Shown piece after piece: positions 5,663-8,318 of a DNA stretch of 64,000 nt. Made by a program: the position numbers and the translations under genes. The stretch is taken from the sequence record AB897757.1, one strand, 5' to 3'. This stretch comes from Klebsiella phage K64-1. The first letter of the stretch is position 1; each line of letters starts with the position of its first letter. The notes beneath the pieces are model-generated. The model did not search any database and had not been told where the DNA came from. It saw only the letters and a list, made by a program, of their open reading frames with translations.

Positions 5663-8318
5663 CGATGATTATGATTATGATTTAGATGATGTGTATTCTA
5701 AAATAAAAAAGCCTGGTGTAAAAATCAAATACACCGAATATGAAGAAAAGGAACTTGCTAAATGTGCAGCAGATCCAATTTATTTCATGGAAAACTATTT
5801 TTATATTGTCAGTAAAGGTGGTGAAATATTATTTAAACCTTATGAATATCAAAAAGAAATGGTACGTAACTTTCAAGGATATACTAACAACGTAATGCTT
5901 ACTGCGAGACAAATGGGTAAGCTATTAATTAATAGTACGCCAATTTTAACACCAACTGGATTTTCAACTATAGGTGAATTAAAAGTAGGGGATATTATAT
6001 ATGGTGCTGATGGAAAGAAGACCAAGATTTCATACATTACACCTGATACGCCAGATATGGTATTATATGATATAAAATTTAGTAATGGGGAAACTATTAC
6101 TGCGTGTGAAGATCATTTATGGAATATAAGTACAACAGATTGGCAACGTTGGGGAAATAAAACAAAAACCCTAAGTACTAAAGAACTTATTCCATTGTTT
6201 AACCAGTATCAATCGCGATCAAAACCAGCAAGAATGTTTATTGAACATTGTGAAACTATTGAGTTTGATGAAACATCCACTAATTTTGATCCATATATGG
6301 TTGGTTTATGGTTAGGTGATGGTGATACCAAATCTAATAGGTTAACTCATTCTAAAGATGATTATCTATTTTATAAATCATATTTTAATGATGAAATATC
6401 TGATTATTTAAAAGATGAAAGAAAAAATGATTGTGGATATTCTAAAATTAATTTTGATTTTAAACAATTTATTCGTGATGGAAAAAAATATATACCCGAT
6501 GAATATATTTTTACATCTGTAGAAAATAGATTAAAACTTTTACAAGGTTTGATGGATAGTGACGGTACAGCAGAACGAACTGGAATGTATCTTCAATTTT
6601 TTAATAACAATAAAGATATAATTGATTCATTTAGATTGATATTAAGTACTCTTGGTATAAAAAGTACAGTAGTTGAAAAACAAAAAACATATACTTATAA
6701 AGGTGAAAAGATAAAATCACCAAATATTTCGTATATGGTTCAATTTAAAACTACAAAATATGATATGTTTATGCTTCCAAGAAAATTAGAAAAGCAATAC
6801 TTAAAAGAATATGTTCATCCTAAAAATAATAGAATTTATATTGAAAGTATAACATTATCAGAATCTACTGAAATGGGTCGTTGTTTACAAGTTGACAATG
6901 AAGACCATTTATTCTTATGTGGTAAAACACTAATACCTACTCATAATACTACTGTAGCAGCAGCATATATATTGTGGTATGCGATGTTTAATCCTACTAA
7001 AACAGTACTGTTACTTGGTAACGTATTGAGTACTGCAAAAGAGATTATGGAACGTATTCAATTCGCATATGAATTATGTCCTGATTTTATACGTGATGGT
7101 GTAGAAAAATATAACGTAACTGAAGTTCGTTTTGAAAATAAATCTCGAATTATTGCTCGTGCAACAACACCAAGTGCTGCACGTGGTTTATCTGTAAACT
7201 TATTATACTTAGATGAATTTGCGTTCGTTCAGGAAAGTTTCCAAGCGGATTTTTGGTCAGCAGTATCGCCAACATTAGCATCATCTAATGGTCGTTGTAT
7301 TATTACCAGTACACCAAACACTGAATATGACCAGTTCGCAACTATATGGAATGAATCACAACGTTTTAGTACTGATGATGGTATTGAATTAGATCCAACA
7401 GGTGCTGGTATAAATGATTTTAAAGGCATTATGGTACGTTGGGACTCACACCCTGATCGTACTCCAGAATGGGCTGCAAAAGAAGAATACAAAATAGGTA
7501 CTTCCAGATTTAAGCGTGAATATAACTGTGAATTCGTAACTTATCAGGAAACACTGATTGATGGTATTAAATTATCAGAAATTAAACACAGAACTGTTCG
7601 TGAACCTATAAAGAGAACTGATGATGTGTACTGGTATAAACCTATTGAATATGGAATGACATATGTACTTGGTTTAGACCCAAGTGGTGGTACAGGTGGT
7701 GACGATGCTGCAATTCAGGTATATGAATTACCAACACTACGACAAGTAGCAGAATGGAAACACAACAAAATGCTCATTACTGATCAAGTAAAATTAATGA
7801 GAAAAATTTTAATGCAAATTGCATATGAAATGCAAGAATTGGGTGCCAAAAATATAGAAGATCATCTATTTTGGACTATTGAAAACAACGGTATTGGAGA
7901 AAGTGGTATATTGGCTATTCAAACACTGGGTATTGAAAATTTCCCAGGCACTATGGTTAATGAACCAAGAAGAACCAGAACTGGTAGAATTCGTAAAGGT
8001 ATGACTACTTCAAAATCAACAAAGAAAACTGCCAATTTACATATGCAAAAATTAATGGAAACATATCGAATGGAAGTTGCAAGTCCTAATTTACATAGAC
8101 AATTGACTGATTATATCAGACGTGGTACTGACTTTTTATTTGAAGCAAAAGCCGGTTGTCGTGATGATTTGGTTAGTGCAACACTTCTTGTTGTGAGATT
8201 AATTGATATTATATCCAAATTCGAAGATAATACCGCTGAAGTAATTGGTGAAAGTTTAGATGATTATGATGAAGAATTTTTTGAACCACTTGGATATATG
8301 ATTACATATACAAGATAA
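5649..8318 (+). CDS. terL: terminase large subunit (gp17-like), interrupted by an in-frame intein
   Basis: Exteins YQKEMVRNF...ARQMGK | [14 protein letters not shown]...LLYLDEFAF and the C-terminal nuclease region match T4 gp17 (YQRDMLKIM..SRQLGKTT VVAIFLAHF..MIYIDECAF). A 342-aa insertion sits between GK and TT of the P-loop. Confidence 0.9.
5922..6947 (+). mobile_element. intein (Hint domain with nested double-motif LAGLIDADG homing endonuclease) in the terL Walker A motif
   Basis: Block [30 protein letters not shown] motifs VGLWLGDGD and [13 protein letters not shown]. Block [26 protein letters not shown] followed by a +1 Thr. HLW (B:12 Trp), the block F Cys and Thr before HN together fit the class 3 WCT pattern. 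Residue 1 is Leu, not Cys or Ser. Confidence 0.8.

Follow-up and report, generated by a model that had tools for sequence, protein, structure and literature searches.

A probable mobile intein of class 3 that contains a LAGLIDADG homing endonuclease, in the terminase P-loop of a RaK2-like Klebsiella jumbo phage

In a 64,000-nucleotide stretch of Klebsiella phage DNA (sequence record AB897757.1; the window, in what follows, is this whole stretch), the gene for the large terminase subunit (terL; protein TerL) is interrupted in frame by a block of 342 codons that separates the two halves of the Walker A motif, or P-loop, and that has the features of an intein. The source of the DNA is a RaK2-like Klebsiella jumbo phage, with a terL region that is 99.1% identical over 2670 nt to that of Klebsiella phage RCIP0023 and a terL nucleotide identity of 93-99% with RaK2, Muenster, KP13-7 and other Alcyoneusvirus jumbo phages. 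Within the open reading frame (ORF), the Pfam family PF03237 (Terminase_6N, T4 gp17 type) matches at residues 434-642 with 33.6 bits against a cut-off of 22, and several PHROG TerL families also match ORF 5649-8318, in its C-terminal 456 amino acids. There is one terL locus per genome, and the interrupted gene is found in at least eight independently deposited records of RaK2-like phages. The gene is organized as follows:

5649-8318, forward strand: terL precursor ORF, a single uninterrupted frame of 889 amino acids plus stop, encoding a T4/gp17-type large terminase with the intein inside
5649-5921, forward strand: N-extein, 91 amino acids, ending in TARQMGK, the first half of Walker A, with Lys91 as residue -1; limits based on the empty alleles of phages PHA46 and PBECO4
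5922-6947, forward strand: intein, 342 amino acids, Leu1 to Asn342, with a predicted class 3-type HINT splicing domain and nested LAGLIDADG endonuclease
6948-8318, forward strand: C-extein, 456 amino acids plus stop, comprising the remainder of the TerL ATPase and the nuclease domain

The translation of 5922-6947 comprises exactly 342 codons, running from LLINSTP to LIPTHN, with TARQMGK upstream and TTVAAAY downstream, which places the insertion point between Lys91 and the Thr of Walker A (ARQMGK/TT, the slash marking the junction here and below). In the alignments, both boundaries are fixed exactly by intein-free alleles of sister phages. The TerL of Salmonella phage PHA46 (543 amino acids) contains the uninterrupted stretch TARQMGKTTVAAAY, and PHA46 and Escherichia coli phage PBECO4 both read TARQMGKTTVAAA(Y/F) without interruption; in each case the alignment gap is exactly the 342-residue block. 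Because GKTT is regained with no other choice of boundary, Leu is residue 1 and Thr is residue +1, and a canonical Cys or Ser start is ruled out. Alternative starts at Ser5 or Thr6, or with Lys91 included in the intein, were considered and rejected, since only Leu1 to Asn342 gives the GKTTVAAAY of PHA46 and PBECO4. Removal of the insert restores the Walker A sequence ARQMGKTT, the same as in the two uninterrupted alleles; the corresponding T4 gp17 motif is SRQLGKT, and the pattern for T4-type terminases is (S/A)RQxGK(T/S). Subtraction of 342 from 889 residues leaves a mature TerL of 547 amino acids. A first-pass annotation, made from the letters of the window, had placed a 342-residue insertion starting with Leu, rather than Cys, Ser or Thr, exactly between GK and TT of the TerL P-loop, had predicted a spliced product of 547 residues and had proposed a search for intein-free terL in related phages. 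The empty alleles of PHA46 and PBECO4 confirm the insertion to the base, together with its position, its first residue and the length of the product. When the intein was compared with the window by tblastn, no further copy was found there. Base composition was also tried as evidence for an intein of foreign origin and proved uninformative, with a GC content of 27.1% in the intein, 29.7% and 34.5% in the exteins and 32.2% in the window, so that the intein is merely slightly richer in AT than the exteins.

The splicing domain contains blocks A, B, F and G:

5922-5960, forward strand: block A; residue 1 is Leu, a non-nucleophile
6087-6128, forward strand: block B; Cys62 (B:7) at 6105-6107, His65 (B:10) at 6114-6116 and Trp67 (B:12) at 6120-6122; aligned to AHQW of MchDnaB1 and Msm DnaBi1
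6873-6923, forward strand: block F; Cys321 (F:4), the predicted initiating nucleophile, at 6882-6884, with the aromatic Phe331 also present; aligned to VRCVEVDNPEHLYLAG of solved class 3 inteins
6927-6950, forward strand: block G plus Thr+1; TLIPTHN, with Thr340 (G:5) at 6939-6941, His341 at 6942-6944, Asn342 at 6945-6947 and Thr+1, the Walker A Thr, at 6948-6950

The short motifs by which these blocks are recognized are all in place, namely EDHLW with His65 and Trp67, GRCLQV with Cys321 and THN/T at 6939-6950, and likewise GLWLGDGD of the endonuclease at 6303-6326. Among all chains of the PDB, the top phmmer matches to the intein are two class 3 mini-inteins of solved structure, MchDnaB1 (6RIX, E 1.1e-15; 6RIY, E 5.5e-15) and Msm DnaBi1 (6BS8, E 3.5e-13), each of which matches in two stretches that correspond to the N- and C-terminal splicing regions. 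In block B, the HLW of the window aligns with HQW (the solved-intein stretch being FSDGTVIVADAAHQWP), and across blocks F and G the window intein aligns with RCVEVDNPxHLYLAGxGMVPTHN (solved-intein stretch VRCVEVDNPAHLYLAGRGMVPTHN). Trp67, Cys321 and Thr340 thereby fall, column for column, on the Trp-Cys-Thr (WCT) signature residues of MchDnaB1 and Msm DnaBi1. A further Cys of block F, Cys333 (6918-6920), lies near the predicted catalytic Cys321 in RaK2-like inteins.

The same residues stand out in the wider family. A metagenome-scale protein search returned 145 homologues at E ≤ 1e-3, of which 120 were analysed and mapped onto the query; they reside, for example, in TerL proteins from three Pfam families, in dCTP deaminases, in helicases and in RecB/Cas4-like nucleases. 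The block B His and the Trp at B:12 are each present in 120/120, the block F Cys, the block G Thr and the terminal Asn each in 115/115, and the penultimate His in 114/115. In a MAFFT alignment of 84 sequences there are six invariant columns, five of which are His65, Trp67, Cys321, Thr340 and Asn342. Residue -1 is Lys in all 69 homologues in which it could be aligned, and residue +1 is Thr in 73, Ser in 30 and Cys in 10. Residue 1 is most often Ala (49), followed by Ser (13) and Gln (11), with Leu in 2 and with Met, Lys, Gly, Pro, Glu and Asp also found; for most cases of Ser no -1 residue is aligned, which makes their placement uncertain, and wherever the alignment is reliable residue 1 appears always to be a non-nucleophile. 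Judged from these alignments, the signature with which Tori et al. (PMC2807308) defined class 3 extends to the whole homologous family. The window intein itself combines a residue 1 other than Cys, Ser or Thr with the WCT set Trp67/Cys321/Thr340, block B His65 and Thr+1, and, as an intein, it is an in-frame insert precisely absent from orthologues, ends in His341-Asn342 followed by Thr+1, and has blocks A, B, F and G within a HINT fold. The WCT signature that the first-pass annotation had read from the letters is in this way borne out, and alignment brought to light neither another boundary with a canonical Cys or Ser nor a loss of the block F Cys or the block B Trp, the two outcomes it had named as fatal to its proposal.

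Between blocks B and F lies a predicted homing endonuclease:

6237-6821, forward strand: predicted LAGLIDADG homing-endonuclease domain, limits approximate, about intein residues 106-300
6303-6326, forward strand: LAGLIDADG motif 1, GLWLGDGD, with the putative catalytic Asp133 at 6318-6320
6537-6566, forward strand: LAGLIDADG motif 2, with the putative catalytic Asp214 at 6561-6563

Pfam family PF14528 (LAGLIDADG_3) matches intein residues 203-258 with 34.2 bits against a cut-off of 22.5, while PF05204 (Hom_end) gives a weak match below the Pfam threshold. By phmmer against the PDB, the endonuclease part also has a weak sequence match to PI-SceI (E 0.023, query residues 183-272), and motif 1 presumably corresponds to block C of PI-SceI, LLGLWIGDG. 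The putative catalytic residues are well conserved, Asp133 being Asp in 71/81 homologues and Asp214 in 76/84. An AlphaFold2 model computed with the family alignment as input reached a mean predicted local distance difference test score (pLDDT) of 94.9 and a predicted template modelling score (pTM) of 0.93, and its secondary structure contains the alpha/beta repeats of the LAGLIDADG domain with both LAGLIDADG helices intact. A Foldseek search of the PDB with this model retrieved PI-SceI (E 1.9e-17, query TM score 0.68), TliVMA, PI-PfuI and PhoVMA as matches to the whole chain, MchDnaB1 and DnaBi1 as matches to the splicing domain (target TM score 0.78-0.85), and I-DmoI as a match to the endonuclease domain. 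The model thus contains, in a single chain, two LAGLIDADG motifs that each carry an acidic residue, within a predicted alpha-beta-beta-alpha-beta-beta-alpha pseudo-dimeric fold. The nested endonuclease with two LAGLIDADG motifs, also part of the first-pass annotation, is upheld by the PF14528 match above cut-off and by the PI-SceI-like fold. Taken together, the phmmer matches to solved class 3 inteins, the 145 homologues and the Foldseek match of the model put the identification far outside what chance would give.

The distribution of the intein among related phages is sporadic, and its history can be followed in pairs of close relatives. The K/T site is occupied in three lineages: the Alcyoneusvirus records, without exception; Asteriusvirus, in phages JNE01, UE-S1 and ph0011; and the Klebsiella aerogenes phage fENko-Kae01. 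Empty sites are found in about 22 PBECO4/121Q-like records, in the Salmonella phages Munch, 7t3, SE_PL and PHA46, in Serratia phage BF and in jumbo phages of Erwinia and Yersinia, and a pattern scan of IMG/VR added 14 uninterrupted ARQMGKTTVA sites, several of which lie on contigs longer than 290 kb. Over 4.5 kb, 8 substitutions separate PHA46 from fENko-Kae01, along with a single exact indel of 987 bp that corresponds to the intein. In the second pair, PBECO4 and UE-S1, the C-exteins are 99.4% identical, and ten synonymous differences are found at -28 to +9 of the insertion point, with the next at -91 and +153; such a cluster would look like a short co-conversion tract from a donor. Across six Alcyoneusvirus alleles, the exteins, the whole C-extein among them, are 100% identical in protein sequence, while the inteins are 79-99% identical and mosaic. 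The OU509535 intein, for instance, is a recombinant with window-type ends and a RaK2-type middle, and window-type ends resemble not the RaK2 intein but that of P0001, an unrelated metagenomic TerL whose intein has Met as residue 1. As footprints left in the sequences, the sporadic occupancy of one site in three lineages, the two empty/occupied pairs, the junction-clustered synonymous changes and the mosaic inteins between identical exteins indicate homing.

We consider it highly probable that the element lodged at 5922-6947, in the TerL P-loop of a RaK2-like Klebsiella jumbo phage, is a mobile intein of class 3 that encloses a LAGLIDADG homing endonuclease. By analogy with MP-Be DnaB, DnaBi1 and MchDnaB1, to which the proposed mechanism owes its steps through homology, terL would be translated as an 889-residue precursor that cannot be an ATPase, because its Walker A motif is split by the intein (ARQMGK/intein/TT). 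The thiol of Cys321 (F:4) would attack the Lys91-Leu1 peptide bond, with His65 (B:10) positioning and activating it together with Trp67 (B:12) and Thr340 (G:5), and the 91-residue N-extein would shift to Cys321 as a thioester, the block F branched intermediate. The N-extein would then pass to the side-chain oxygen of Thr+1, Asn342 would cyclize with the help of His341 to free the intein, and an O-to-N acyl shift would give the native Lys-Thr bond and a 547-residue TerL with an intact ARQMGKTT P-loop. As Thr+1, the acceptor of the N-extein, is also the Thr of Walker A, the ATPase site would exist only after splicing. The first-pass annotation had held that splicing must work and ought to follow the class 3 mechanism; homology, conservation and the viability of the phages suggest both. 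Indirect evidence for splicing comes from a terL that is essential and single-copy, from the viable isolates and from purifying selection on the splicing blocks. In its second role, the excised intein, or the precursor, may cut intein-free terL at ATGGGnAAA/ACnACnGT during co-infection, and repair from the intein-containing copy would then spread the element; we infer this endonuclease activity.

Several points weigh against this interpretation. The class 3 mechanism is assigned, by analogy, from signature and homology only. A Pfam search of the ORF at E ≤ 1 gave no match to the Hint family, NCBIfam intein_Nterm (TIGR01445) scored 15.6 bits, below its cut-off of 24.5, and intein_Cterm had no match. 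Two residues are atypical: B:7 is Cys62 in RaK2-like inteins and Asp in 80/120 homologues, and Leu at position 1 is rare, occurring in 2 of about 80 aligned homologues. Moreover, each of the 8 Alcyoneusvirus records that were found carries the intein, which leaves the genus without an empty target, so that the endonuclease is under no current homing selection there. Because the generic intein profiles remained sub-threshold, the PDB sequence search, the family alignment and the fold search were relied upon. The Hint blocks listed in the first-pass annotation call for one small qualification, being real by homology and fold and going unreported by generic profile models, and the comparison with Pfam hidden Markov models that it had suggested came out positive for LAGLIDADG (PF14528) and negative for Hint.

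The alternative that deserves most weight, although we regard it as unlikely, is that splicing works and the LAGLIDADG endonuclease of this particular allele is inactive, the intein being a vertically inherited passenger that has become fixed in Alcyoneusvirus late in the homing cycle. The saturation of the genus, which leaves no target within it, fits such a history. So does the pattern of selection, since the splicing regions have dN/dS values (the ratio of nonsynonymous to synonymous substitution, by the Nei-Gojobori method, for the window, RaK2, fENko-Kae01 and JNE01 alleles) of 0.11-0.26, against 0.28-0.63 for the endonuclease region. The splicing domain is strongly constrained and the endonuclease is less so, yet it is not freely decaying: its dN/dS is still below 1, and both putative catalytic Asp residues and both LAGLIDADG helices are intact. 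The mosaic alleles, such as that of OU509535, and the P0001-like ends of the window allele also imply continuing exchange, and in sister lineages there have been very recent events of gain or loss.

Splicing without the block F Cys, either by a class 2-like direct attack of the +1 residue or by a class 1-like route from a canonical N-terminal boundary, is very unlikely. A non-nucleophilic residue 1 is also a property of class 2 (KlbA-type) inteins (PMC2807308), but these are without the WCT signature and KlbA uses Cys+1, whereas here the WCT residues show no variation across 115-120 homologues and Thr stands at +1. The empty alleles fix the boundaries in such a way that no Cys, Ser or Thr can be residue 1, and with a start at Ser5 or Thr6 the product would retain GKLLIN and lose its Walker A. 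The closest solved relatives, in addition, are proven class 3 inteins (PMC6195587; PMC7664689).

Even less credible is the suggestion that the insertion is never removed, as a degenerate intein remnant or a tolerated domain insertion with which TerL either works or is non-functional. GenBank labels for the gene that read just 'hypothetical protein' or 'terminase large subunit', and the sub-threshold scores of standard intein models, would be compatible with it. The insert, however, splits GK/T of the P-loop of a single-copy gene in phages that are viable isolates, all of its splicing residues are invariant and under purifying selection, and the AlphaFold2 model is a complete HINT and LAGLIDADG fold. 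Excision from the RNA, with the insert acting as a group I or group II intron that carries a LAGLIDADG ORF, is barely conceivable: LAGLIDADG genes are common in introns and group I introns occur in T4-like phages, but the insert is stop-free and in frame with both exteins, its termini too are protein-coding, homologous to intein blocks A, B, F and G and constrained (dN/dS 0.1-0.26), and the empty/occupied indels, of 987, 1020 and 1026 bp, are exact multiples of 3.

As a class 3 intein with an endonuclease, the element is an ordinary example of a well-known kind, and its nearest relatives have been studied in detail. The prototype of the class is the DnaB intein of mycobacteriophage Bethlehem, MP-Be DnaB, for which an obligate Cys nucleophile in block F, a branched thioester intermediate at that block and N-terminal cleavage in the absence of the +1 nucleophile were shown (PMC2807308). 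Like the window intein, it is phage-borne, has Thr+1 and has an aromatic residue 10 positions past the block F Cys (PMC2807308), and, compared by published residue numbers, its His65, Trp67, Cys320, Thr339 and Asn341 correspond to His65, Trp67, Cys321, Thr340 and Asn342 here. It differs in having Pro1 in place of Leu1 and in its host, a DnaB-like helicase of an actinobacteriophage. MchDnaB1 (6RIX/6RIY) and Msm DnaBi1 (6BS8) share with the window intein the site after the P-loop GK, a Ser or Thr at +1 that is the Walker A hydroxyl residue and a non-nucleophilic residue 1, and their WCT residues, block B His and THN align with it residue for residue. The C118A substitution abolishes splicing of Msm DnaBi1 (PMC6195587), and MchDnaB1 has a Cys124-His65-Thr143 triad (PMC7664689). 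Unlike the window intein, both are mini-inteins that lack an endonuclease and reside in a bacterial replicative helicase; identity over the splicing domain is about 31%, and B:7 is Asp there and Cys here. The best whole-chain structural match, PI-SceI of the yeast VMA1 protein (1VDE, 1EF0, 1LWS), has the same combination of HINT and LAGLIDADG domains with similar motifs, GLW(I/L)GDG and GL(I/M)DSDG, but is a class 1 intein (Cys1, Cys+1) of a eukaryotic V-ATPase with ~14% identity.

Class 3 inteins in phage TerL P-loops were described together with the class itself in 2010 (PMC2807308). Subsequently, class 3 LAGLIDADG inteins were reported in mycobacteriophage TerL1, along with the 'classic' K/T P-loop site (Kelley et al., 2016; PMC5050341), and in 2025 a survey of actinobacteriophages arrived at a count of 287 class 3 inteins, the majority of them in TerL and Cas4 (bioRxiv 10.1101/2025.01.02.630785). 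The actinobacteriophage inteins TerL1-c, -d and -e resemble the one described here in joining a class 3 domain to a LAGLIDADG endonuclease within the TerL ATPase domain, in their sporadic distribution and in their signs of horizontal transfer. They differ in that their hosts are Terminase_1-family TerL proteins and in their insertion sites, a helix of low conservation for c and d and Walker B for e, the K/T site being TerL1-a (PMC5050341); the host of the window intein is the T4-type (Terminase_6) TerL of an enterobacterial jumbo myovirus, and its site is K/T of Walker A. For RaK2 and K64-1, the presence of Hint and LAGLIDADG domains in the large terminase has been mentioned by Buttimer et al. 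(2017; PMC5259590), who did not give boundaries, site or class. The RaK2/K64-1 TerL intein of that report is orthologous to the present one, with the same gene, site, 342-residue length and architecture and with exteins that are 100% identical in protein sequence; relative to the RaK2 intein, the window allele is 79% identical in amino acids and 82% in nucleotides, is mosaic, and has Leu1 where RaK2 has Ala. In the literature searched, no statement of the class or exact site of this intein was found, and the points that are new are limited to these two, to the Leu1 allele and to the setting in T4-type TerL of enterobacterial jumbo phages.

A separate observation concerns the terL gene of E. 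coli relatives. In 12 records of E. coli Asteriusvirus, terL is annotated as two overlapping genes ('terminase large subunit A/B'); records of this frameshift clade include A4, Ecwhy_1, vB_Ec-M-J, fEgEco12, Turkey3/5, WPEC3/5, BF17, TH47, EC.P1 and CMSTMSU. Five frameshift alleles were read, at the following positions of our numbered loci, homologous to window positions 5913-5921 and 6948-6953:

L003, 3482-3520
L006, 1582-1620
L008, 1570-1608
L029, 591-630
L007, 1570-1608

These alleles have CGT CAG ATG C GGA AAA ACA ACC GTT where PBECO4 has CGT CAG ATG GGC AAA ACT ACT GTT. In Walker A, the extra nucleotide separates the Met codon from the Gly codon; it precedes the intein insertion point by 6 nt, and the reading frame is 0 before it and +1 after it. 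A4 and vB_Ec-M-J have the insertion in common although their proportion of synonymous differences (pS) is 0.55; in the downstream +1 frame their proportion of nonsynonymous differences (pN) is 0.0475, whereas the same DNA read in frame 0 gives a pN of 0.18 and a pS of 0.05. In view of this pattern, of the sharing of the insertion and of the presence of a single terL copy in the genomes of the clade, the 1-nt insertion is not a sequencing error but has been conserved, and it calls for either recoding or a split protein. Candidate explanations are a programmed +1 frameshift (at a rare CGG codon or through slippage of a Lys-tRNA on AAAAA) and a split TerL. A scan of IMG/VR for the exact pattern of the frameshift allele returned 0 contigs, and literature searches found no paper on the Asteriusvirus terL frameshift. 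The UE-S1 tract upstream of its intein is identical to the sequence of frameshift-clade phages. Any link between the frameshift and the endonuclease target is speculation; if it were true, the 1-nt insertion in the E. coli sister clade could render the site refractory to the endonuclease.

Sensitivity of splicing to redox state and zinc has been described for Msm DnaBi1. It is improbable, though worth stating, that the window intein is more than a selfish passenger, either as a redox- or zinc-sensitive splicing switch that times packaging through Cys62 and Cys333 or as a source of homing pressure that shapes the coding of the host gene; the suggestion comes from co-location only. If it were correct, redox- or zinc-gated splicing would control the activation of the terminase and hence the timing of DNA packaging in a jumbo phage.

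Immediately upstream of terL, the ORF at 4982-5662 of the window (forward strand, 226 amino acids) overlaps the terL start by 14 nt and belongs to PHROG 27915, to which no function is assigned there. It contains a Walker-A-like motif in which Thr replaces Lys, in register with the Walker A stretch of TerL, and its orthologue is labelled 'large terminase subunit' or 'DNA packaging protein' in some GenBank records. Pairwise BLASTP of this ORF against TerL gave no significant match (E 0.65).

Among near-identical GenBank genes, most are labelled 'hypothetical protein', bear a plain terminase label or are unannotated, with no mention of an intein in those seen, and the misses by profile models probably explain these public labels of an 889-residue precursor. 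A mature TerL of 547 rather than 889 amino acids, as splicing would produce, bears on proteomics searches and on phylogenies built from terminases, which are in wide use for jumbo phages. The PHA46/fENko-Kae01 and PBECO4/UE-S1 pairs, together with the mosaic alleles, are handy material for studies of homing and co-conversion, and a 342-residue class 3 intein with Lys at -1 and Thr at +1 could have a minor use in protein engineering. The understanding of inteins in general is unchanged by these findings. What they do extend is the range of well-supported class 3 inteins, from actinobacteriophages and mycobacteria to the T4-type terminases of enterobacterial jumbo phages, and this extension fits the proposed phage origin of the class.

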